The position numbers were made by a program, and so were the translations under genes. From positions 1 to 9,967 of IMG/VR virus record IMGVR_UViG_648276669_000002: a DNA stretch of 9,967 bases; one strand, given 5' to 3'. Origin of the DNA: a virus (Duplodnaviria > Heunggongvirae > Uroviricota > Caudoviricetes). The notes under the pieces were generated by a model. It worked only from the letters and a program-made list of their open reading frames with translations. It did not search any database and was not told the origin of the DNA. Of this stretch, positions 1 to 9,967 are shown piece after piece; within the stretch, counting starts at the first letter, position 1; each line of letters begins with the position of its first letter.

Positions 1-113
1 TGCCTGGCTATTTTCGATTTGGTCTGGATTATTGGTAGTGCCTGTTCTTTCAAAGCGCATGATATTTGTGCATCCCATGCCTTTTCGAGAATGGCTAATT
101 GTTTTTTATTCAT
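1..113 (-). CDS. Partial gene (N-terminal 37 codons only, runs off the window); unknown product, downstream neighbour of the helicase in the replication/nin operon
   Basis: Minus-strand ATG at 113..111 overlaps the helicase stop (112..110) as ATGA; open frame continues to position 1 ([37 protein letters not shown]...). Too short for the ORF track. Confidence 0.4.
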
Positions 114-1486
114 ACGTCAGCCCCTTGTGCATATCGTCTGCCACGCGCAGCAGGTGCATTTGATGCTGTGCAAATCTGTCTGGCTTCATCCTGGTCACAT
201 GCAACAAAGTGTCCGTTGCAGAACCGCTGGTAAACCGTACCAAGCGAGCCAAAACGGTTTTTCGTCACAATGATTTCAGCAAAGGGCGCGGCGCTACTGT
301 TCTCGTCATATACCGCTTCCCGATAGAGCATGATGATTGAGTCTGCGTCCTGCTCAATGCTTCCTGAATCACGCAAATCTGCGTTTGTCGGGCGTTTGTT
401 TGGTCGCTTCTCAACATCGCGTGAAAGCTGGCTTAGGGAGATAACAGGCGTTTTCAGGTCTTTCGCCATCGCCTTCAGGCTTCCGGAGATGTGAGCAATT
501 GCAAGGTCGTTGCGGTCTGCTTTCGGCTTCTCAATCAGGCCAAGATAATCCGCCATGATGAGTGACAGGTTTGGATTTTCCTGTTTGTGCCGTTCTGCGA
601 TTGAGCGAATTTCTTCGACCGATAACCGCGAGGCATCGACTACCCATACATCCAAATCTGCAAGCTGACTCATGCCGTTAGCAACACGCGCCCAGCCTTC
701 GTCATCCATCGATGCAGGATTTCGCAGCACGCTAACCGACATCCTCCCGGCGTTGGCAATACTTCGCTCTGCAATCTGCAATGCGCTCATTTCCATTGAG
801 AAAATCAATACTCCGCGCCGGACGTCAGAACCAGGAATAACACGACTTGCAACGCCTTCGGCAATCTTCAGCGCCAGTTCGGTTTTCCCCATACCAGGAC
901 GAGCGGCGATAATCACCAGGTCTTCTGCGTTCATCCCTCCGGTGATTGCGTCAAGTTCTTCGATTCCGGTCTTCAGGGTATCTGACTCTTCTCCGTTCCT
1001 CAGACGCCTGTCAAGCGTGTCAGTGTAGTCAGTGATGATTTCCCCTAACCGTACAGGTTTAACCTCGTCACGGGGCTTTCTGATAGCTGAAAGACGCTTT
1101 ACAAGTTCATCCATCGCCTGACTCGATGCGTCGATGGTTCCGCTCTGAATTGGTTCACGCATTTCATCCATGATTTCCAGCACCAGACGGCGGTGATAGT
1201 TATCCGCGACCATTCCAGCATATCCCTTCAGGTTTGCGGCACTCGGGCAGTTTTTGCTGGTCATCAGGATTGACGTGAAATGCTCCTCTCCGCACTCCTC
1301 GGCAACCATCAGCGCATCGATTAGGTTTCTGTTTCTCGCCTGCTTGCGGATAACCTCGAAGGCTTTCCTGTAGAGCGGAATTGAAAACGCTTCCGGCTCC
1401 AGCGTTGCCAGAACGTCGCTGGCGGTTGGAGTTAATCCACCAATCAGCAGGCCACCGATAACGCTCGCTTCGATATCCTGTCTCAT
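110..1486 (-). CDS. DnaB-family replicative DNA helicase (phage P22 gene 12-type)
   Basis: 458-aa ORF with a DnaB-like N-terminal domain and a RecA-fold C-terminal domain carrying Walker A (ARPGMGKT). Its ATG (1486..1484) overlaps the stop of the upstream O-like gene as ATGA. Confidence 0.9.
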
Positions 1487-2304
1487 GCAATTCCCCTGTC
1501 TGCAAACTTCCCTTCACGAACTCCCGTTAACGAATCTTCTCTCAGCAGGTAATCAAAATCAGCCGTCCAGCCCGTGTCGTTGTCTCCGAAGTAAAACGGC
1601 TTGGCCTGATGCACAAACGCCCTGACATACACCCTGAAACCGTCCACGTTTGGCGTTTTCAGTTGCGGGATGATTTTTTTCAGGCGGCGTTTGCGTTTCT
1701 CGTTGACCGCAACAGCGTGTGGAAGTCTGTCACCGACTTCGGTGTTGTAGGCGTTCAGGAAGGATTCGTAGTCGATTCGTTCTGCCTTGCGACGTTCAGG
1801 TTTAACCTGCCCATCGCCGCCCCCGTTAGGGGGTAAGGGGGTATTTGTATTTATTGTCTTTTGTATATTGTCTTTTGTGTTTAGCTGACTTGGCTTATAC
1901 CCATTAGCTGACTTGGCTAATGTTTTATTAGCTGTTTTAGCTAATGTTAAGCTGTCCTGGCTAATCCACTGCGAAACCACCTTGTTCACTCCGATTTTCA
2001 CGCCATCAGCAATGAGGAATTTACGCTCAATAAGCTGGCGCTTGGCAGCGCAAACATGAGTGTGATGAATACCTGTCATGGCTGCTATCTGCGTGTTTGT
2101 GAGTCGATCCATCGGCTTATTGAATCCGTATGTCTTGCGCATGATAGCGAGCATCACCTTCAACTGCCGGACGGTTAAATCAGCCATCAGCAGACTGTCG
2201 GTAATCTCGTTAGCAACGCGCATGAAACCATCTTCGGTATCTGCCACGCGATGCTCCACGACCTCAAGTTGAGGCCTGTAATCAGCTAACTTAACGACGC
2301 CCAT
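1483..2304 (-). CDS. O: Replication initiator, lambda O-like
   Basis: 273-aa ORF whose N-terminal domain ([27 protein letters not shown]) matches, as I recall it, the lambda O DNA-binding domain (LTKRQFKVLLAILRKTYGWNKPMDRIT). AGGAG RBS 6 nt upstream of the ATG at 2304. Iterons sit inside the coding sequence, as in lambda. Confidence 0.9.
1854..1965. repeat. Replication origin inside the O-like gene: four iterons AGCTG-N6-GCT(A/T)AT plus a tandem TTGTCTTTTGT repeat
   Basis: Iteron copies at 1883-1898, 1906-1921, 1930-1945 and 1950-1965 (agctgacttggcttat / agctgacttggctaat / agctgttttagctaat / agctgtcctggctaat); TTGTCTTTTGT at 1854-1864 and 1868-1878. Lambda ori likewise lies within O as iterons next to an AT-rich tract. 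Confidence 0.7.
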
Positions 2305-2452
2305 GTTTCACTCCTGCTTTGGCTAGTCTGTAAACACCAACAAGGCGCTCTGCGAACGCCCTGTTATTTGCTGCGGCTACCACTAATCCCTCAGGTGAAT
2401 CAGGGTGTCGAATCTCTTCTTTTTCCTGGTATTTCTTACGACGTTTTGTCAT
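2291..2452 (-). CDS. Small basic hypothetical protein (53 aa) between cII and O
   Basis: ATG at 2452..2450 preceded by AGGAG (revcomp of 2456-2460); [53 protein letters not shown]. Its 3' end overlaps the O start by 14 bp out of frame. The ORF track starts it at 2497, which would overlap the cII stop. Confidence 0.4.
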   Translation of the reverse strand: MTKRRKKYQEKEEIRHPDSPEGLVVAAANNRAFAERLVGVYRLAKAGVKHGRR

Positions 2453-2455
2453 AAT

Positions 2456-2529
2456 TACTCCTGTGGATTGATCCAGTCTTTCTACATCAGGCCTCAAAAC
2501 TGTTGCAGCAGTCTTGAGGCTTTTCTTTT
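2456..2529 (+). ncRNA. Candidate OOP-like antisense RNA covering the cII 3' end
   Basis: A strong plus-strand intrinsic terminator (2491-2529) sits antisense to the last ~14 codons of cII. A -10-like CATAAT at 2450-2455 lies about 70 nt upstream. Same geometry as lambda OOP RNA. The 5' end is inferred, not seen. Confidence 0.35.
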
Positions 2530-2765
2530 GTCAGCACCTTGGCTACTTTCTTTGCCAGTTCCGCCAATTCCTCGTCTTCAACACCCCACTCCAGCACAGC
2601 CAGAAGCATGGCCATCTTTGGGATAAAGCTGTCTTTCCATCGCGAAATTTGCGATTCATTAATCCCTAACGCGTCGGCAACCTTTCGCTGACCACGTACA
2701 GCAATTCGATTTAGGATGTTGCTTGTAATTGCATTCGCTTTCTTGCGAGTACTTGTAAGTTGCAT
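2487..2765 (-). CDS. cII: cII-like transcriptional activator (P22 C1 / lambda CII family)
   Basis: MQLTSTRKKANAITSNILNRIAVRGQRKVADALGINESQISRWKDSFIPKMAMLLAVLEWGVEDEELAELAKKV... aligns with lambda CII as I recall it (SQISRWK, LLAVLEWGV). Start at ATG 2765 with RBS region ttaaggaaatacttacatATG. The ORF track extends it falsely to 2852 across nutR. Confidence 0.85.
   Translation of the reverse strand: MQLTSTRKKANAITSNILNRIAVRGQRKVADALGINESQISRWKDSFIPKMAMLLAVLEWGVEDEELAELAKKVAKVLTKEKPQDCCNSFEA
2491..2529 (+). terminator. Rho-independent terminator, plus-strand specific, overlapping the cII stop codon
   Basis: Arms gcctcaa (2491-2497) and ttgaggc (2514-2520) with an inner actg/cagt stem, followed by ttttctttt (2521-2529). 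The minus-strand side has no T-tract. Confidence 0.7.
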
Positions 2766-2775
2766 ATGTAAGTAT
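2743..2775 (+). promoter_or_regulatory. Candidate pRE-type CII-activated promoter, antisense to cro
   Basis: TTGC-N6-TTGT at 2743-2756 inside the first cII codons, followed 8 nt later by atgtaagtat, the same -10 region context as the lambda pRE sequence I recall. A perfect TTGC-N6-TTGC also occurs at 2719-2732, so exact placement is uncertain. Confidence 0.35.
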
Positions 2776-2823
2776 TTCCTTAACAAATAAGAAGTTATAC
2801 GCACCAACTGATGCGCGTTGTAT

Positions 2824-2866
2824 TCCCGCATTTCGGCGGGAATGAGGACCATGACTGTTAAAGAGC
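2824..2866 (-). promoter_or_regulatory. nutR: boxA (2856-2866) and boxB hairpin (2824-2841) between cro and cII
   Basis: Minus-strand reading gives GCTCTTTAACA (boxA consensus CGCTCTTTAACA), a 14-nt spacer, then TCCCGC-CGAAAT-GCGGGA. The 18-bp boxB is identical to the copy downstream of PL. Confidence 0.75.
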
Positions 2867-2873
2867 AATTTGC

Positions 2874-3059
2874 TTATGCCGCTTTGCGATAAGCACTTTC
2901 TTGATACTTCAGGGCGCCAGCTGTAACGACTTCCAGTCGATAGGCGTCTTTCTCTGGGATGACTTCCTTCCACTGAGAGACTGCTGCATCGCTAATGCCT
3001 AACGCTTTAGCTACCGCACGCTGGGTTCCGAAGTGGTCGATAACATCTTTCTTGTACAT
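2874..3059 (-). CDS. cro: Cro repressor (P22 Cro-type)
   Basis: 61-aa MYKKDVIDHFGTQRAVAKALGISDAAVSQWKEVIPEKDAYRLEVVTAGALKYQESAYRKAA, nearly identical to P22 Cro as recalled. GGAG RBS 7 nt upstream; divergent from cI across the operator cluster. Confidence 0.9.
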   Translation of the reverse strand: MYKKDVIDHFGTQRAVAKALGISDAAVSQWKEVIPEKDAYRLEVVTAGALKYQESAYRKAA

Positions 3060-3073
3060 AGACTCGCTCCGAA

Positions 3074-3139
3074 ATTAAAGAACACTTAAATTATCTATCA
3101 AAGGAATCTTAAGTCAAGTTTATTTAAGATGTCTTAACT
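3074..3139. promoter_or_regulatory. OR1-OR2-OR3 operator cluster with divergent PR and PRM
   Basis: Three 18-bp near-palindromes AT(T/C)(A/T)AAG-N4-CTTAA(A/G/C)T at 3074-3091, 3097-3114 and 3122-3139. PR on the minus strand: -35 TTGACT (revcomp of 3112-3117), 16-bp spacer, -10 GATAAT (revcomp of 3090-3095). OR3 abuts the cI ATG, which has no Shine-Dalgarno, consistent with a leaderless PRM transcript. Confidence 0.75.
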
Positions 3140-3790
3140 ATGAATACACAACTGATGGGTGAGCGTATTCGCGCTCGCAGAAAAGAACTCAAGATTAGGC
3201 AGGCTGCCCTTGGCAAGATGGTTGGCGTGTCTAATGTTGCTATTTCCCAATGGGAGCGTTCTGAAACTGAGCCCAATGGCGAAAACCTATTGGCCTTAGC
3301 CAAGGCTTTGCAGTGCTCCCCTGATTACTTGTTGAAAGGAGAAGATAGTCTTTCAAACATTGCCTATCACAGCAGGCATGATCCAAGAGGTTCGTATCCT
3401 CTAATTAGTTGGGTAAGCGCAGGATGTTGGATGGAAGCTGTAGAGCCATATCATAAGCGTGCAATAGATAACTGGTACGATACAACCGTAGATTGTTCAG
3501 AAGATTCGTTTTGGCTGGACGTAAAGGGTGATTCGATGACGGCTCCAGCCGGTCTTAGCATCCCGGAAGGGATGATAATACTAGTCGATCCTGAAGTAGA
3601 ACCTCGTAATGGGAAGCTGGTAGTGGCAAAGCTCGAAGGAGAAAACGAGGCAACTTTCAAGAAGTTAGTTATTGATGCTGGCAGAAGGTTTCTAAAACCA
3701 CTTAACCCACAATATCCGATGATTGAGATCAACGGGAACTGCAAAATCATCGGTGTAGTTGTCGATGCAAAAATAGCAAACCTTCCATAA
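3140..3790 (+). CDS. cI: CI-type prophage repressor, P22 C2-like (HTH plus S24 LexA-like autopeptidase domain)
   Basis: 216 aa, near-identical along its length to P22 C2 repressor as recalled (MNTQLMGERIRARRK...GVVVDAKIANLP). HTH QAALGKMVGVSNVAISQWER; C-terminal domain with GDSM and downstream Lys. Confidence 0.95.
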   Translation: MNTQLMGERIRARRKELKIRQAALGKMVGVSNVAISQWERSETEPNGENLLALAKALQCSPDYLLKGEDSLSNIAYHSRHDPRGSYPLISWVSAGCWMEAVEPYHKRAIDNWYDTTVDCSEDSFWLDVKGDSMTAPAGLSIPEGMIILVDPEVEPRNGKLVVAKLEGENEATFKKLVIDAGRRFLKPLNPQYPMIEINGNCKIIGVVVDAKIANLP

Positions 3791-3810
3791 GGGGCATTCG
3801 CCCCTTTTTT
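3791..3810 (+). terminator. Rho-independent terminator directly after cI
   Basis: ggggc-attc-gcccc hairpin (3791-3804) followed by tttttt (3805-3810), starting 1 nt after the cI stop. Confidence 0.7.
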
Positions 3811-3853
3811 CTTTCCTTTAAAAATCAAAGCAAAACTTAAACTTCGCAATAAA

Positions 3854-3907
3854 ATTTAAGTTTTCTTCAAAAACACTCTTGACCACCAATTAAAGAAATC
3901 TTAAATT
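3854..3907 (+). promoter_or_regulatory. OL operators and PL promoter
   Basis: OL1 ATTAAAG-AAAT-CTTAAAT (3889-3906) and OL2 ATTTAAG-TTTT-CTTCAAA (3854-3871) match the OR pattern. -35 TTGACC (3879-3884), 17-bp spacer, -10 TAAATT (3902-3907), directed at N. Confidence 0.55.
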
Positions 3908-3953
3908 TAAGTCATCAGCAGGACGCTGGTAGCCAAACGGAACAGATTGGCAG

Positions 3954-3994
3954 GCTCTTTAACATTGATGGGATTGTCCCGCCGAAATGCGGGA
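3954..3994 (+). promoter_or_regulatory. nutL: boxA (3954-3964) and boxB hairpin (3977-3994)
   Basis: GCTCTTTAACA, 12-nt spacer, then TCCCGC-CGAAAT-GCGGGA, identical to the nutR boxB; about 45 nt downstream of the PL -10 and about 110 nt upstream of N. Confidence 0.75.
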
Positions 3995-4101
3995 ACCAAA
4001 GAGTAGTTGGCTTTGGGGTGACGTGAAGTGCAGCTGCACGACGGCAACCGGAAGATAAGCACCCGGCGCGTCACCGCCAAAGTCAATCATCGGAGGTCAA
4101 C

Positions 4102-4374
4102 ATGACAGTAGTCATTACATATCTGGCTGACGATAACGCCAGAAATAGCCGCAGAGCACGCAGACAGGCTCAACGTGAACAGGCAATGCAAGAGCAGCGA
4201 CTGGCGCGAAAGATTGCGCTAAAGCTCTCTGGTTGCGTCAGAGCAGATAAAGCAGCATCACTCGGAAGCCTTCGCTGTAAGGAAGAAGATGAACGCAGTG
4301 GAAGTATTTGCCTGCCAAACGTAGCTCTTTACGCGGCAGGCTACAGGAAATCAAAACAACTGACGGCGAGGTAA
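4102..4374 (+). CDS. N: N-like transcription antiterminator
   Basis: 90 aa with GGAGG RBS. N-terminus MTVVITY and C-terminus LPNVALYAAGYRKSKQLTAR resemble P22 gene 24 product as recalled. Arginine-rich motif NARNSRRARRQAQREQ near the N-terminus. First gene after PL/nutL. Confidence 0.8.
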   Translation: MTVVITYLADDNARNSRRARRQAQREQAMQEQRLARKIALKLSGCVRADKAASLGSLRCKEEDERSGSICLPNVALYAAGYRKSKQLTAR

Positions 4375-4376
4375 TT

Positions 4377-4670
4377 ATGGATATTTCATGTATTGAACAA
4401 TTACTAATTGAGAAAACGAAAGAAATGCTTGATGTATTGGACATAAAAATATCTGAGTTAAAAGATACACCCGCGACACAACTTATTCTCGAACGTAGTC
4501 GAAATAAATTCTTAGAGTTAAACCCTGACGTTCAAAATATAGCATCTAAACTGCTGGCTACATTGATTGAGAGAAATGCATTGTTATCGATGTCATCAGA
4601 TGAACGAAAAAAACTGGCGAACGAAGATGCTGCAACCATCCGCCAGGCATTCGAAATTTTGTTTTCTTAA
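4377..4670 (+). CDS. Hypothetical protein (97 aa), predicted helical, no recognisable family
   Basis: ATG at 4377 two nt after the N stop, with GAGG RBS inside the N 3' end; MDISCIEQLLIEKTKEMLDVLDIKISELKDTPATQLILERSRNK... The ORF-track start at 4308 would overlap N. Confidence 0.6.
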   Translation: MDISCIEQLLIEKTKEMLDVLDIKISELKDTPATQLILERSRNKFLELNPDVQNIASKLLATLIERNALLSMSSDERKKLANEDAATIRQAFEILFS

Positions 4671-4835
4671 TTACTTACTGTTTATTCTGATAATCTCATC
4701 AAGAATTTTTTCATAAACAACTGTGATTGGCTTTCCGTCAATGCCAGGGGCAAGATTACCGGCTCTGATAAGCTCAACAATAATCTGTTGAGCGGCTTCG
4801 TGTGGGTTGGTTTTAGGATTAACAATATCTGTCAT
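4671..4835 (-). CDS. Hypothetical small protein (54 aa), convergent with the PL operon
   Basis: Minus-strand ORF ending 1 nt from the stop of the 97-aa gene; MTDIVNPKTNPHEAAQQIIVELIRAGNLAPGIDGKPITVVYEKILDEIIRINSK. Weak RBS (AAGAAGGG). The alternative start at 4940 adds a Cys/His-rich 35-aa extension encoded by the direct repeats, which looks non-protein-like. Confidence 0.4.
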   Translation of the reverse strand: MTDIVNPKTNPHEAAQQIIVELIRAGNLAPGIDGKPITVVYEKILDEIIRINSK

Positions 4836-4975
4836 AACAAAGCCCTTCTTTTGACTGTGGAAACAACAGTCTACCCATTTCCTTTGACTGTGGAAAGTGA
4901 AGGAACCACCGAGCCTGATGTGGTTAAAAGACAGGCACAATCTTTACTACCGCAATCCACTATTTAAGGTGATAT

Positions 4976-5068
4976 ATGGAAGAAGAATTTGAAGAGTTCG
5001 AAGAGCATCCTCAGGATGTGATGGAACAATACCAGGACTATCCGTATGACTACGACTATTGATAAAAA
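4976..5068 (+). CDS. Possible 30-aa highly acidic micro-ORF overlapping the ral start
   Basis: AAGGTGA RBS then ATG 4976; MEEEFEEFEEHPQDVMEQYQDYPYDYDY; stop at 5066-5068 overlaps the ral start out of frame. Lambda has a comparably small ORF (orf28) near ral, from memory. Confidence 0.3.
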
Positions 5069-5246
5069 TCAATGGTGTGGACAATTCAAGCGATGCAATG
5101 GATGCAAGCTGCAATCGGAATGCATGGTTAAGCCTGAAGAAATGTTTCCTGTAATGGAAGATGGGAAATATGTCGATAAATGGGCAATACGAACGACGGC
5201 AATGATTGCCAGAGAATTTGGTAAACAGAATAACAAGGCTGCCTGA
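5046..5246 (+). CDS. ral: Ral-family restriction-alleviation protein
   Basis: 66 aa, MTTTIDKNQWCGQFKRCNGCKLQSECMVKPEEMFPVMEDGKYVDKWAIRTTAMIAREFGKQNNKAA; matches lambda Ral as recalled nearly residue for residue. Four Cys in CX6CX2CX5C spacing. Confidence 0.8.
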   Translation: MTTTIDKNQWCGQFKRCNGCKLQSECMVKPEEMFPVMEDGKYVDKWAIRTTAMIAREFGKQNNKAA

Positions 5247-5382
5247 TGGTGGCCTTTATTTTTGGCATAAACAACAGAATAAACACTGCACTGTGTATTC
5301 ATTCCAACGAGTGAATACACGGAGCAATGTCGCTCGTAACTAAACAGGAGCCGACTTGTTCTGATTGTTGGAAATCTTCTTT

Positions 5383-5408
5383 GCCCTCCAATGTGAGGGC
5401 GATTTTTT
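5383..5408 (+). terminator. Rho-independent terminator in the ral-ea10 spacer (tL2-like position)
   Basis: gccctc-caatgt-gagggc hairpin (5383-5400) followed by gatttttt (to 5408). Confidence 0.65.
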
Positions 5409-5428
5409 ATCTATGAGGATATGAATAG

Positions 5429-5797
5429 ATGTCAAACATCAAAAAATACATCATTGATTACGACTGGAAAGCGTCAATAGAAATTGAAATCGACCATGAC
5501 GTAATGACAGAGGAAAAACTTCACCAGATTAATAATTTCTGGTCAGACTCTGAATACCGACTCAATAAACACGGCGCTGTATTAAATGCTGTATTAATCA
5601 TGCTGGCGCAACATGCTCTGCTTATAGCAATTTCGAAAGACTTAAATGCATATGGTGTTGTTTGTGAGTTCGACTGGGATGATGGAAATGGTCAGGAAGG
5701 ATGGCCTCCAATGGATGGTAGTGAAGGAATAAGAATTACCGATATCGATACATCAGGAATATTTGATTCAGATGATATGACTATCAAAGCCGCCTGA
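5429..5797 (+). CDS. ea10: Ea10-like protein (lambda early-left operon protein of unknown function)
   Basis: 122 aa, MSNIKKYIIDYDWKASIEIEIDHDVMTEEKLHQINNFWSDSEYRLNKHG...; matches lambda Ea10 as recalled and sits in the same place (ral - ea10 - cIII). GAGGA RBS. Confidence 0.75.
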   Translation: MSNIKKYIIDYDWKASIEIEIDHDVMTEEKLHQINNFWSDSEYRLNKHGAVLNAVLIMLAQHALLIAISKDLNAYGVVCEFDWDDGNGQEGWPPMDGSEGIRITDIDTSGIFDSDDMTIKAA

Positions 5798-5872
5798 GCG
5801 CGGCTTTACCGCATACCAATAATGCTTCACGAGAGGCATTTTCGTTATGCAATCAAATATAAGGAGTTACCC

Positions 5873-6007
5873 ATGATGCACTTTCAGCTCGCGGGTAGCG
5901 GCGTCATGTCCGCTTTCTACCCGCACGAATCTGAATTATCACGCCGAGTTAAACAATTAATCAGAGCAGCAAAGAAACAACTGGAGGCGTTATGCGCAAT
6001 GAAATAG
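5873..6007 (+). CDS. cIII: cIII-like protein (FtsH inhibitor family)
   Basis: AAGGAG RBS then ATG 5873; 44 aa MMHFQLAGSGVMSAFYPHESELSRRVKQLIRAAKKQLEALCAMK. The ESELSRRVKQLIRAAKK helix parallels the lambda CIII core ESLLERITRKLRDGWKR. The ORF-track start at 5822 is an upstream extension. Confidence 0.65.
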   Translation: MMHFQLAGSGVMSAFYPHESELSRRVKQLIRAAKKQLEALCAMK

Positions 6008-6144
6008 CCATTAATCACCAGATGCTTCGTGCTGCACAGAACAAAGCAGTAATAGCCAGATTTATTGGTGATTCAAAAATGTGGCTTGAAGCAAATAAAG
6101 CGATGAAATCAGCTATCAACCTTCCGTGGTATCGCAGGAAATGA
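5992..6144 (+). CDS. kil: Kil-like small protein (50 aa); not in the ORF track
   Basis: GGAGG RBS then ATG 5992, overlapping the cIII 3' end by 16 nt in another frame; MRNEIAINHQMLRAAQNKAVIARFIGDSKMWLEANKAMKSAINLPWYRRK. The IARFIGDSKM segment resembles lambda Kil (IATFIGDEKM, from memory); lambda kil also overlaps cIII. Confidence 0.5.
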   Translation: MRNEIAINHQMLRAAQNKAVIARFIGDSKMWLEANKAMKSAINLPWYRRK

Positions 6145-6299
6145 GTTTTACAGATAACTGGTCAGACGAAGAATTCATTCGTCAGATGAAAGAATTAATC
6201 GGTAACGAAGGAGATATTCATGTCACTTGCAACCACAGTGAAGGAGAGCAAGTTACAGAGACGCATGTACACGCAGAAAGCTCTCTGGTATCGCCATAA
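6141..6299 (+). CDS. Small hypothetical ORF (52 aa), translationally coupled to kil; not in the ORF track
   Basis: ATG 6141 overlaps the kil stop as ATGA; MSFTDNWSDEEFIRQMKELIGNEGDIHVTCNHSEGEQVTETHVHAESSLVSP. Confidence 0.3.
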   Translation: MSFTDNWSDEEFIRQMKELIGNEGDIHVTCNHSEGEQVTETHVHAESSLVSP

Positions 6300-6398
6300 T
6301 GGTGACCGCGAAGGAATGCGGGTATGCCTTAATTTGTCCCGAGTCGAAGTATTAAATCAGCGTTATTTCCTTGGGCCGTGTCCATTCTGAGGTGAATT

Positions 6399-7106
6399 AT
6401 GGATTTGAACAAATTCGATGAGCCATTCAGCCCTGAAGATATCGAATGGCGAATACAGCAAAGCGGTAAAACACGCGATGGCAAGGTGTGGGCTATGGTG
6501 CTGGCTTATGTCACGAACCGGGCAATCATGAAACGCCTGGACGATGTTTGCGGCAAAGCAGGATGGCGCAATGAATACCGCGATATTCCCAACAACGGCG
6601 GAGTTGAATGCGGCATATCAATCAAGATTGATTCCGAATGGGTAACCAAATGGGATGCTGCTGAAAACACGCAGGTAGAAGCCGTCAAAGGTGGTCGTTC
6701 AGGTGCAATGAAGCGTGCTGCCGTTCAGTGGGGAATCGGTCGGTATCTGTATAACCTTGAGGAAGGTTTCGCACAAACATCTCTCGATAAAAAGCAGGGG
6801 TGGCACAGGGCAAAACTGAAGGATGGAACAGGATTTTACTGGCTCCCTCCATCGCTGCCGGGATGGGCAATCCCAGCATCAGATAACAAACCATCACCAG
6901 AAAATACCAACCAGAAATCTCCATCGGTTGACTGCGAACAAATCCTGAAAGACTTCAGCGATTATGCGTCAACAGAAACTGATAAGAAAAAACTCATCGA
7001 GCGTTATCAGCGTGACTGGCAATTAATGGCTGGCAACGAGGAGGCGCAGGCTAAATGCGTTCAGGTAATGAACATCAGAGTTAACGAACTAAAACAGGCG
7101 GCATAA
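6399..7106 (+). CDS. Single-strand annealing protein, Rad52/Sak-like family (recombinase)
   Basis: 235 aa with GAGGTGA RBS. Segments DIEWR, GKAGWRNEY and RSGAMKRAAVQWGIGRYLYNL resemble the Rad52-family annealing core as I recall it. Occupies the bet position, immediately upstream of ssb. Confidence 0.65.
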   Translation: MDLNKFDEPFSPEDIEWRIQQSGKTRDGKVWAMVLAYVTNRAIMKRLDDVCGKAGWRNEYRDIPNNGGVECGISIKIDSEWVTKWDAAENTQVEAVKGGRSGAMKRAAVQWGIGRYLYNLEEGFAQTSLDKKQGWHRAKLKDGTGFYWLPPSLPGWAIPASDNKPSPENTNQKSPSVDCEQILKDFSDYASTETDKKKLIERYQRDWQLMAGNEEAQAKCVQVMNIRVNELKQAA

Positions 7107-7613
7107 ATGGCAAGCAGAGGCGTAAATAAGGTGATTATCCTTGGTCGGGTAGGACAAGCCCCGGAAGTTCGATACTCACCATCAGGAACAGCGTTAGCTA
7201 ACCTGACAATAGCCACATCAGAACAATGGCGAGATAAAAATACTGGCGAGCAAAAGGAATTGACTGAATGGCATCGTGTTGCTGTATCCGGGAAACTGGC
7301 TGAGGTCGTGGGGCAGTATGTGAAAAAAGGTGATCAGATTTATTTCGAGGGAATGCTGAGAACCAGAAAGTGGAAAGACCAGTCAGGGCAAGACCGTTAC
7401 ACAACCGAGGTTCATGTCGGAATTAATGGCGTGATGCAAATGCCTGGCGGCATTGGCGACAGCAAACAACAAGCAGCCAGCAGGCAATCACAGAAGCCAC
7501 AGCAGCAATCATCACCAGCACAACACAACGAACCTCCGATGGATTTTGACGACGATATACCCTTTGCACCAGTAACTCTCCCCTTCCCTCGTCACGCTAT
7601 TCACGCAATTTAA
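7107..7613 (+). CDS. ssb: Single-stranded DNA-binding protein with a 15-residue extension past the canonical DDDIPF tail
   Basis: 168 aa; the OB-fold domain parallels E. coli SSB closely ([10 protein letters not shown]..., [18 protein letters not shown]). A Q/P-rich linker ends in [11 protein letters not shown], then [15 protein letters not shown] before the TAA at 7611-7613. Confidence 0.95.
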
Positions 7614-7621
7614 GGACTTAC

Positions 7622-8170
7622 ATGAATCACTTAATGGTTGACCTTGAAACAATGGGCAACGGGCCATACTCGCCAGTTATTTCTATTGGGGCGGTATTCT
7701 TTGACCCGAATACCGGAGAAACAGGAGAAGAGTTCTCGGTAAATATCTCGCTTGAGTCATCAATGCGATATCGGGCGCGTCCTGACGCTTCAACGATTTT
7801 ATGGTGGATGGAACAGAGTGAAGAAGCCAGAAAATCGCTAACCAGCAACACTCAAGAGCTTTCAACGGCTCTTTCATGGTTATCTGAATTCATCATAAAG
7901 AACGCCAACCACAAATTCGTTCAGGTTTGGGGGAATGGAGCATCATTTGACTGCGTTATTCTCCGCAACAGTTATTCGCTGACAGGGCAGCCAGTTCCGT
8001 GGCAGTGGTGGAATGACCGCGACGTAAGAACAATCGTCGAACTTGGGAAGGTAATAGGATTCGACCCTAAGCGAGATATGCCATTCAAAGGAACTCGCCA
8101 CAACGCGCTTGATGATGCCATTCACCAAGCCAAATACGTTTCAGCGATCTGGAAAAAGTTAGCTAAATAA
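7622..8170 (+). CDS. DEDDh-type 3'-5' exonuclease (DnaQ-like fold)
   Basis: 182 aa with AAGGA RBS. Exo I-like VDLET near the N-terminus, internal FD, and C-terminal H-x4-D (HNALDDA). Confidence 0.75.
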   Translation: MNHLMVDLETMGNGPYSPVISIGAVFFDPNTGETGEEFSVNISLESSMRYRARPDASTILWWMEQSEEARKSLTSNTQELSTALSWLSEFIIKNANHKFVQVWGNGASFDCVILRNSYSLTGQPVPWQWWNDRDVRTIVELGKVIGFDPKRDMPFKGTRHNALDDAIHQAKYVSAIWKKLAK

Positions 8171-8186
8171 TCAACAGGAGAAAACC

Positions 8187-8480
8187 ATGCCAGCGCCTCT
8201 GTATGGTGCGGACGACGCGCGCCGCTGTTCCGGCAATTCCGTATCGGAGGTGCTGGATAAATTCAGAAAAAACTACGACCGGATAATGTCGCTACCGCAG
8301 GAAACGAAAGAGGAAAAGGAATTTCGCCACTGTATATGGCTTGCAGAGAAAGAAGAACGCGAGCGAATTTACCAGACATCAATCCAACCATTCCGCAAAG
8401 CCACATATACCCACTTCCCTGAAATTGACCCGCGCCTGCGTAATTACCGCTCACGTTATGGCGCTATCAGTAATGACTGA
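8187..8480 (+). CDS. Hypothetical protein (97 aa)
   Basis: AGGAG RBS 6 nt before the ATG; [51 protein letters not shown]...; no family recognised. Confidence 0.6.
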
Positions 8481-8490
8481 GGAATTTACC

Positions 8491-8655
8491 ATGAGAGGAC
8501 TTGCATACAATCCCGGCATTCTTCCGGCAGAAATGATTATTCGCCAACGCGTAAAGCCAATGCCATCGAGAGAGGAATTGCTTAAGAGAAATTCTTTTCC
8601 ATCAGTAAATCAAAACAAATATCTGAATGCGATGTGGCGGAGTGGGAAGAAATGA
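8491..8655 (+). CDS. Hypothetical small protein (54 aa)
   Basis: GAGGA RBS then ATG 8491; [54 protein letters not shown]. The ORF-track version (8341..) is an in-frame upstream extension overlapping the previous gene. Confidence 0.4.
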
Positions 8656-9539
8656 AACAAATGTCACTAATTGAGATGGATGGATTTCTGAAAGGTAAAT
8701 GCATCCCACGAGATTTAAAGGTTAACGAAACAAACGCTGAATATCTTGTCCGTAAGTTCGGTGAACTTGAATCAAAACTCAACGAGCAGCGTGAGTATTA
8801 CGAGGGCGTTATCTCGGATGGGAGTAAGCGTATTGCTGAACTGGAGAAAAGCGAAGAGCAACTCATCAACGAGCGTGACCATGCTGAGTATGCTTTAGCT
8901 GATATGTATTTTGCAGCAACCGGGAACAGGCCGGAATGGAGTAACTGTTTCAGTTTTTCAGATGCAGTAGATGCCGTAGTTGACAGAATTGCTGATTTAG
9001 AAGTTAAACAGCCATCGCCAGTAGTACCGGAAGAAAAACCAATGCCGAACCCTCTTAGCATGTATGCGGTTGATGCGGTTGCAGCTATTGCAGAGGTGAG
9101 AGGCTGGAACGCCTGTCGTGCCGCCATGCTTCATGGTGCCAAACCTGTAAGCCAAACTTACAACTTGCCACAAACGGAGTTTGAACAGGTTGCTGACCTC
9201 TACAAAATGCAATTTGATGACGGTCGCACTTGTGCCTTTCACACTGATGCGCAAAAGGCTGCTCAATGGCTTCAGACGTGCGACGGAAACAGAGTTCAGG
9301 AATACGTGAAGCTGGAACGGTTGCAGAATGCGCTGTCTGGCAACTATCCGGTAACTCCGGATGGTTGGATAAGCTGTAGTGAGCGAATGCCAGATGATGG
9401 TCAGCACGTAATTATTTTATGTGATGGCGCATTCGTTCTTTATGCGCAATATCGAGACGGTGAGTTTTTTGATGTTGTCCGCAATGGTGAGGAGTTCTTC
9501 GAAACGCAGAGCCGCAATGTAACTAGACTGGCCCCCTGA
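8652..9539 (+). CDS. DUF551-domain phage protein; 3' end interrupted by IS2, with the last codons and the stop supplied by the IS2 end
   Basis: ATG 8652 overlaps the previous stop as ATGA (the ORF track uses ATG 8634). C-terminal region [40 protein letters not shown] is DUF551-like. The final residues (T)RLAP and TGA are encoded by tagactggccccctga, the IS2 terminus. Confidence 0.65.
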
Positions 9540-9967
9540 ATCTCCAGACAACCAGTATCACTTAAATAAGTGATAGTCTTAATACTAGTTTTTAGACTAG
9601 TCATTGGAGAACAGATGATTGATGTCTTAGGGCCGGAGAAACGCAGACGGCGTACCACACAGGAAAAGATCGCAATTGTTCAGCAGAGCTTTGAACCGGG
9701 GATGACGGTCTCCCTCGTTGCCCGGCAACATGGTGTAGCAGCCAGCCAGTTATTTCTCTGGCGTAAGCAATACCAGGAAGGAAGTCTTACTGCTGTCGCC
9801 GCCGGAGAACAGGTTGTTCCTGCCTCTGAACTTGCTGCCGCCATGAAGCAGATTAAAGAACTCCAGCGCCTGCTCGGCAAGAAAACGATGGAAAATGAAC
9901 TCCTCAAAGAAGCCGTTGAATATGGACGGGCAAAAAAGTGGATAGCGCACGCGCCCTTATTGCCCGG
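9524..9967 (+). mobile_element. IS2 (IS3 family) left end, partial; the element runs off the window
   Basis: TAGACTGGCCCCCTGAATCTCCAGACAACC... from 9524 matches the IS2 left terminal inverted repeat as recalled, followed by insC with its characteristic leader. Confidence 0.85.
9615..9967 (+). CDS. insC: IS2 transposase OrfA (InsC), C-terminally truncated by the window edge
   Basis: [117 protein letters not shown] matches IS2 InsC as recalled; HTH then leucine-zipper region. Confidence 0.9.

Follow-up and report, generated by a model that had tools for sequence, protein, structure and literature searches.

The 9,967-nucleotide stretch analysed here (positions 1 to 9,967 of the IMG/VR virus record IMGVR_UViG_648276669_000002, Caudoviricetes; hereafter the window) is a lambdoid prophage, read in the PL direction. 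Between its genes N and ral, at positions 4377-4975, lie two small convergent genes and a control element: a plus-strand gene of 97 amino acids (aa), a minus-strand gene of 54 aa (the plus and minus genes) and, upstream of the latter, a pair of direct repeats. We suggest that this segment is an exchangeable two-gene cargo lodged in the slot that sieB occupies in phage lambda and placed under control of the sieB/sas type, the plus protein acting as a likely antagonist of a minus protein expressed in the lysogen. Taken as a whole, we regard this reading as quite possible, though short of probable. Its individual parts are of differing strength, and are presented accordingly below. The features on which the argument turns are, in window coordinates:

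4377-4670, plus strand: plus gene, 97 aa (ATG 4377, stop 4668-4670)
4671-4835, minus strand: minus gene, 54 aa (ATG 4835-4833, stop 4673-4671)
4831-4953, plus strand: sas-like antisense RNA region, positional homologue of P22 sas, covering the minus-gene start codon and Shine-Dalgarno (SD) sequence, both repeats and a conserved 3' domain
4843-4849, minus strand: SD sequence GAAGGG of the minus gene, the last conserved bases before the cargo joins
4846-4863: gene-proximal repeat copy (core 4850-4863); in plus-strand RNA, GACUGU 4853-4858 pairs with ACAGUC 4866-4871 as predicted stem-loop A
4868-4873, minus strand: -10-like TAGACT between the repeats, with a weak -35 TTTCCA (4896-4891) 17 nucleotides (nt) upstream; candidate sieB-type promoter of the minus gene
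4879-4905, plus strand: distal repeat copy (core 4883-4896) in stem-loop B, predicted fold UUCCUUU-G-ACU-[GUGGAA]-AGU-GAAGGAA
4903-4975: identity to lambda 34430-34358 is 100%; by sequence comparison, the left edge of the exchangeable module
4904-4936, plus strand: conserved 3' domain, candidate pseudoknot; hairpin AACCAC/GUGGUU (4904-4909 with 4920-4925), with possible pairing between its loop GCCUG (4913-4917) and CAGGC (4932-4936)

The layout described in an earlier, sequence-only reading of this DNA was recovered in full. The open reading frame (ORF) coordinates agree that the plus gene starts 2 nt after N and that the two genes converge with their stop codons touching and zero bases between them; with abutting stops and no terminator-like site between the genes, the geometry of the pair is that of an excludon. 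A scan of the plus strand between N and ral found no terminator-like site, the first lying at 5235-5256, so that read-through from PL would cross the minus gene in antisense, as had been proposed. The statement that lambda carries sieB in this interval also proved right: lambda sieB (34482..35036, plus strand) lies between N and ral, antisense to PL and abutting N. In HK140, the window's type of N (273 nt; region ~97% identical) has a P22-type sieB in antisense as its immediate neighbour, with ral next. Given these two layouts, the window pair occupies the sieB slot; the minus gene has a sieB-like place and orientation, between N and ral and antisense to PL, and abuts the plus gene, not N.

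The likeness extends to the DNA from which the minus gene would be expressed, which is homologous to the region upstream of sieB in lambda and P22. The window and two related loci (L002, L003) match lambda and HK140 identically up to window position 4903 and then diverge, and in the same three sequences the cargo junction falls right after ...CAGTCAAAAGAAGG. The homology stops short of the proteins: hhalign comparison of both protein families with lambda SieB gave probabilities of 1% and 0.1% with no Pfam match, and the 54-aa minus protein has no internal methionine, hence no in-frame product of the Esc type. Neither DNA nor protein matches to the segment 4377-4843 were found among 50,697 phage genomes, and tblastn searches of the same genomes with the minus protein, the plus protein and diverged minus forms returned nothing. 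The GC content of the module (34-40%, versus 51-54% for N) is typical of acquired cargo, which we count towards a foreign origin. The boundary-sequence annotation bsq5 of CUS-3 was considered and set aside as irrelevant, being sited between cI and N.

The repeats had been noted in the sequence-only reading. The 14-bp sequence TTTGACTGTGGAAA is indeed present in exactly two copies, one at 4850-4863 and one at 4883-4896. A search tolerating up to 2 mismatches would be expected to give 0.08 matches by chance, and no shuffle out of 200 contained two. Beyond the core, the copies can be aligned over 18 nt, with 17/18 identity (4846-4863, 4879-4896) and a period of 33 nt. The motif is not peculiar to this locus: the sieB-sas control region of lambda and P22 already contains a repeated motif, of which this is a variant. 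An anchor sequence (...AACCACATCAGGCTCGGTGGTTC, in cargo direction) lies upstream of several sequence classes in IMG/VR contigs and reference phages, most of which share one layout, namely two direct repeats 33-34 bp apart with TAnAnT between them, followed by the SD sequence and the start codon. Lambda, P22/HK140 and a third class carry ACCCCTACAG twice, the window class TTTCCACAGTCAAA twice and another class TCCCCAACA twice; in L154, which represents a diverged form of the window class, the copies are CTTCCACAGCCAAA and ATTCCACAGTCAAA and the spacer differs, and in a minority of anchor-bearing sequences the second copy has diverged. The hexamer between the repeats, which we describe as TAnAnT, keeps its position in each of the five element classes (TAAACT, TAAAAT, TAGACT, TAATCT and TAGCCT).

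Several other roles for these sequences were tried. Compared by eye, the repeats do not hold up across the lambda/P22 class as DnaA, LexA, sigma-E or sigma-32 sites, nor does TTGACT as the -35 of a plus-strand promoter. A minus-strand ATG at 4878-4876 (MGRLLFPQSKEG...) was rejected as the start of the minus gene: although L002 and L003 have it in the reading frame of their cargo, in the window its frame differs from that of the minus gene. The short ORF that it opens (4878-4819, minus strand; MGRLLFPQSKEG...) lies inside the control element and ends just inside the minus gene, and could be an upstream ORF or, in some variants, an alternative start.

The strand opposite to the candidate promoter resembles sas. 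In the sequence given in a 2026 paper (PMC13397905, Table 2), P22 sas is the PL-direction strand of the sieB control region, running from just inside the sieB start codon, over the SD sequence and both repeats (CUGUAGGGGU twice), to ...CUUUACUACCGC (PMC13397905). It is reported to be made during infection, to be antisense to sieB and to switch sieB translation (PMC3224144, PMC12197685, PMC13397905). When window positions 4831-4953 are aligned to P22 sas, the last 50 nt match with one mismatch; the 5' third is class-specific and keeps the two-repeat layout (CUGUAGGGG twice in P22 and lambda). The work of Ranade and Poteete (1993) is said to agree with sas as an infection-made antisense switch of sieB.

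Judging from the predicted folds, each repeat copy lies at or beside the tip of a hairpin, with two hairpins per class whose stems differ in sequence. Stem-loop B of lambda and P22 reads UUCUCG-C-UGUA-[GGGG]-UACA-CGAGAA, and RNAalifold gave 6 consensus pairs for this stem-loop, 4 of them changed on both sides. Both helices of the 3' domain vary yet stay paired across lambdoid variants and e14 (AACCCGC/GCGGGUU, CGCGC/GCGCG and GCCGGG/CCCGGC), and the G-U wobbles among these pairs are permissible only if the RNA is that of the PL-direction strand. Pairing in the second helix reaches 97.9%, with one covarying pair, which is probably a single evolutionary event. Rfam holds no family for the sas-like region.

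The homology of the upstream region to sieB and sas fits one half of an earlier proposal, that a gene set against PL would be expressed in the lysogen and silenced on induction, and supplies a known mechanism for it. Judged by control sequences, the case that the minus gene would be ON in the lysogen, and OFF on induction through an antisense RNA derived from PL, is well supported. The other half, which assigned the pair to superinfection exclusion, abortive infection or toxin-antitoxin cargo, drew no PADLOC, Pfam, NCBIfam or informative fold match.

We then asked what the minus gene encodes. Its differences from the L154 homologue fall 17/8/33 at the first, second and third codon positions, with a nonsynonymous divergence (dN) of 0.29 and saturated synonymous divergence (dS), and this pattern indicates a real gene under purifying selection. 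The product is mildly acidic and without a hydrophobic segment, and AlphaFold2 predicts a helix-loop-helix (helices 11-24 and 37-53; predicted local distance difference test, pLDDT, 83; predicted template modelling score, pTM, 0.65), so described with fair confidence as a predicted soluble hairpin. It matches phrog_27767 (E = 9.6e-10 over residues 1-38), and PHROG 27767 and 17494 are the family matches of the minus protein and of its diverged 57-aa and 60-aa forms; membership explains nothing on role. Among 1.84 billion representatives there is one true relative, P0015, of 58 aa and 61% identity. HMMER matches to proteins of 1696, 424 and 2326 aa (P0014, P0016, P0017) were rejected as an artefact of eukaryotic-looking repeat proteins, in which up to 25 weak stretches of 'PGIDGK'-like repeats are summed, in one case to E = 2.6e-46; such summed weak matches are a trap for very short queries in an exhaustive HMMER search. 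The minus gene also contains a 26-nt direct repeat (4686-4711 and 4764-4789; 81% identical, 78 nt or 26 codons apart), and its two predicted helices resemble each other (...QQIIVELIRAG... and ...EKILDEIIRIN...); given this likeness together with the internal repeat, the hairpin may come from duplication of one helix.

The plus protein is acidic and predicted by AlphaFold2 to form 4 helices (pLDDT 73.6, pTM 0.34). Its relatives fall into 36 clusters, all annotated hypothetical, and the family is found in prophages of Escherichia, Shigella, Citrobacter, Salmonella and Edwardsiella only. Full-length alignment gives 26-31% identity to what we call the MDLSK-type members and 97% to a variant, P0010. 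By sequence, the plus protein belongs, as a diverged member, to a family of Enterobacteriaceae prophage proteins whose genes directly follow N. In two loci (L009, L033) and in E. coli 214-4 (NZ_CP025840.1), an extra A plus a T-to-A change (window 4442-4444) makes an A8 run that frameshifts the plus gene (+1) at about codon 23; a 79-aa C-terminal ORF stays open and the minus gene is intact.

That neither protein is recognisable, as had been stated from the letters, was confirmed by profile-HMM and fold searches, which gave nothing characterised. Pfam, NCBIfam, PADLOC and PDB sequence searches returned nothing significant for either protein, and Foldseek searches of PDB with both models and of BFVD with the minus model produced no match below E = 0.3.

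The plus gene is not an oddity independent of its neighbour; its family is found alongside the minus family. Four diverged forms of the minus gene each have a convergent partner homologous to the plus protein, abutting or overlapping by at most 14 nt:

Window: minus protein 54 aa, partner 97 aa
L154-L157: minus protein 58 aa, partner 58 aa
L014: minus protein 57 aa, partner 54 aa
L002 / L032: minus protein 60 aa, partner 99 aa

The part common to the short partners is the C-terminal two-helix part of the plus protein (about residues 44-97). Smith-Waterman scores of the 58-aa and 54-aa partners against this half were 70 and 90, as compared with ~26+-5 for shuffles, and 0 of 1000-2000 shuffles scored as high. 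The partner diverges faster than the minus protein (~36% identity, 20/55 aligned residues, versus 61%). We also considered that minus and plus might be inverted paralogues, and rejected this, their Smith-Waterman scores being equal to those of shuffles.

The control element itself is not bound to this pair. An exact-match scan of IMG/VR for the double repeat found it at 31 loci, and it is present in 12 of 5426 E. coli genomes, the pair being present in 6 of the 5426 complete genomes. Across the IMG/VR loci and E. coli genomes, the same element and SD sequence stand ahead of at least seven small ORF types, apparently unrelated as judged by eye, with profile comparison of types A, A' and C only. 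The sizes of the cargo ORFs are:

54-60 aa: window family and diverged forms
84 aa
67-71 aa
80 aa
92-94 aa: YmfI by NCBIfam
95 aa

Nearly all of these cargo ORFs have a convergent partner of their own, and types B, C and E each have a specific one. Type C was tested as a member of the minus family and rejected (hhalign probability 1-2%). Type E is the YmfI family (NCBIfam YmfI, 4.6e-25) and lies behind a repeat element of the window class.

Further observations on the distribution of the element are as follows. At 81-83% identity, the window-class element occurs in two isolated phages, Hafnia phage vB_HpaM_Meifeng (L159 1215-1586) and Salmonella phage MS2 LVA (H31); in the former, the gene immediately downstream of the element is a hypothetical one of 90 aa on the minus strand, outside the classified cargo types, and the presence of the element there means that the element is not confined to E. 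coli prophages. At L007, L037 and L025 the element sits in contexts without N, beside a PL-direction partner of 96 aa (MRRGPMRGKFRF...) or 146 aa, and its 3' domain is the variant with the AACCCGC/GCGGGUU hairpin. Beside the 84-aa cargo at L003, L012, L016, L020, L028, L029, L035 and L036, the plus-family domain carries a fused C-terminal extension (...ASEAVRQQAQVMINQAETISRE...) whose overlap with the 3' end of the cargo, on the opposite strand, amounts to 62-98 nt; L011 and L031 instead encode the extension as an independent ORF (56-64 aa; overlap with the cargo 95-119 nt). In K-12 e14 (L158 3423-3500), ymfI is preceded by the same anchor as sieB and the minus gene, with one repeat-like motif only, and ymfI and ymfJ converge with an overlap of 63 nt.

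By analogy with the known systems discussed below, we infer that the minus gene supplies the lysogen with a factor that probably acts against phages, and that the plus protein, expressed early, is the antagonist of this factor. In the lysogen, CI would keep PL off and the minus protein would be made from the weak sieB-type promoter between the repeats. On induction or infection, N-antiterminated transcription from PL would first make the 97-aa plus protein and would then run antisense through the minus gene, yielding the sas-like RNA (about 4831-4953), which would mask the SD sequence and start codon of the minus mRNA and halt synthesis. The plus protein would meanwhile neutralise any minus protein made beforehand, in the way that Esc acts on SieB and Ith on Tha. 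A lysogen factor most plausibly aimed at other phages would in this manner spare the phage's own lytic growth.

Several results weigh against this account. The candidate promoter matches the consensus at 8/12 positions and falls below the threshold of our promoter scan, a scan that misses the HK140 promoters of sieB and sas as well. The sas-like RNAs fold with energies only modestly better than those of shuffles (z = -1.4 to -1.8; lambda -0.35), so that the structure is plausible from modelling, and unproven. A 54-aa acidic soluble hairpin with no SieB similarity is unlike known exclusion or abortive-infection effectors. As to the partnership, a plus domain of the MDLSK type is also found as part of a fusion with another module, next to cargo type B and in the absence of the minus family, and the plus protein therefore cannot be solely a dedicated antagonist; three records have an intact minus gene next to a plus gene disrupted by the +1 frameshift; and both genes lie between two conserved recombination boundaries, the end of N and the sieB/sas control element, for which reason co-inheritance alone is weak evidence of coupling.

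The main rival is that the two genes are functionally unrelated and travel together between the two boundaries. The plus gene would then be an ordinary early PL gene, for example for host takeover or anti-defence, and the minus gene a lysogenic-conversion gene of unrelated role, to which antisense control would still apply. The coincidence of the module boundaries with conserved sequences, the many fused forms of the plus domain beside a cargo other than the minus family, and the persistence of frameshifted plus genes next to intact minus genes all speak for it. Against it, the pair has been kept through deep divergence, the minus proteins sharing 61%, 41% and ~27% identity, and in differing backgrounds, including L155, where N does not precede, and forms whose partner is reduced to 54-58 aa; cargo types B, C and E, too, each have a specific convergent partner. 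On balance we think it doubtful, although a real contender.

A second alternative reverses the roles, such that the plus protein would harm the host in the manner of Kil, and the minus gene together with its antisense transcription would protect the lysogen from leaky PL expression. PL operons do carry host-toxic genes, kil being annotated downstream in the record of E. coli MS 16-3, which is identical to the window over the segment; with the genes convergent, transcription of the minus strand could interfere with any leaky expression of the plus gene, and a frameshifted plus gene beside an intact minus gene fits the inactivation of a toxin in a domesticated prophage. Neither protein, however, matches a toxin or antitoxin family, and the conserved antisense RNA region is directed at the minus-gene start and not at the plus gene, which marks the minus gene as the one to be silenced in lytic growth. 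We consider this arrangement unlikely. That the minus ORF is nonfunctional as a protein and its transcript alone matters, as an antisense RNA damping PL read-through, is highly improbable: the ORF is very short and its relatives are few, but it is open in four diverged forms with the SD sequence at a fixed distance, its substitutions relative to L154 concentrate at third codon positions, and it has a structure prediction confident for its size and a PHROG family match.

The surroundings of the pair are those of a lambdoid early-left region. Replication genes, cII and cro are followed by cI (3140-3790), with replication genes, cII and cro on the minus strand, and then by a PL-like promoter, N, the plus gene, the minus gene, a homologue of lambda orf28 and ral. 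The neighbouring features are:

3879-3907: PL-like promoter TTGACC-17-TAAATT, upstream of N
4102-4374, plus strand: N antiterminator gene, 90 aa (Pfam N_peptide 6.9e-15; phrog_271 6.6e-31)
4976-5062, plus strand: orf28 homologue, 28 aa, acidic (phrog_16060 7.1e-19; annotated in lambda as orf28)
5046-5246, plus strand: ral, restriction alleviation (Pfam Ral 7.6e-48)

The orf28 homologue (MEEEFEEFEEHPQDVMEQYQDYPYDYDY) is very acidic, overlaps the start of ral by 17 nt and is conserved in lambda and many relatives. E. coli MS 16-3 is 100% identical to the window over 4377-4975, and its RefSeq record annotates both coding sequences with the same bounds, as hypothetical proteins WP_000354998.1 and WP_000129979.1.

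Among known systems, sieB-esc-sas of P22 and lambda is the closest. It shares with the window the slot, the antisense orientation, an abutting PL-direction gene, homologous control DNA, a PL-direction strand corresponding in sequence to sas, with a near-identical 3' domain, and two copies of a motif. It differs in its cargo, SieB (184 aa in lambda) as opposed to a 54-aa predicted soluble hairpin; in that the candidate antagonist in the window is a separate gene on the opposite strand and not an in-frame Esc; and in the class-specific repeat sequence and 5' third of the sas-like RNA. In phage 80alpha of Staphylococcus aureus, the HEPN RNase defence protein Tha is switched off by a small inhibitor, Ith, encoded antisense to it (PMC11087260). 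The window shares the combination of a prophage gene expressed in lysogeny, which for the window would be so by inference, and a small gene on the opposite strand, whereas host, phage group and proteins are unrelated, and PADLOC, Pfam and NCBIfam recognise no defence domain in the minus protein.

An RNA-seq survey of E. coli K-12 described ymfI-ymfJ (e14) and sieB-ydaF (Rac) as convergent excludons with overlapping transcripts (PMC12288877). Of the e14 pair, ymfJ is strongly SOS-induced and ymfI only weakly. These are likewise convergent pairs in the early-left region of lambdoid prophages, although they encode other proteins and e14 has one repeat-like motif between anchor and start codon. 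The pair does not have the layout of a type II toxin-antitoxin system: the window genes converge and are not co-directional, and no toxin or antitoxin family was matched.

A wider reading, which we offer as speculative and ourselves somewhat doubt, is that the sieB promoter/sas cassette is a portable platform, ON in the lysogen and OFF in lysis, that has captured at least seven unrelated families of tiny proteins, the majority together with a convergent partner of their own that is expressed early. The window pair might then be its minimal form, a heterodimeric four-helix bundle of two helical hairpins of about 55 aa, one anti-phage or host-modulating and the other its cognate off-switch, with the repeats forming paired kissing loops and the RNA ending in a pseudoknot. 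If true, this would amount to an undescribed class of miniature exclusion/self-immunity modules.

The principle of control, sieB with its sas RNA, is already known; what is new to us is the cargo proteins and the breadth of the platform, in that the cassette appears to be reused as a general platform for many small genes. The anchor and the two repeats may thereby provide a sequence handle for lysogen-expressed cargo labelled 'hypothetical' or missed by annotation, and the recurrence of cargo with a partner points to a two-component design, a factor and its own off-switch. To our knowledge, sas-type antisense RNAs have been little studied since 1993, and the repeats and conserved 3' domain suggest that they have a defined structure. 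If exclusion turns out to be what these small proteins do, they would rank with the smallest exclusion factors known.

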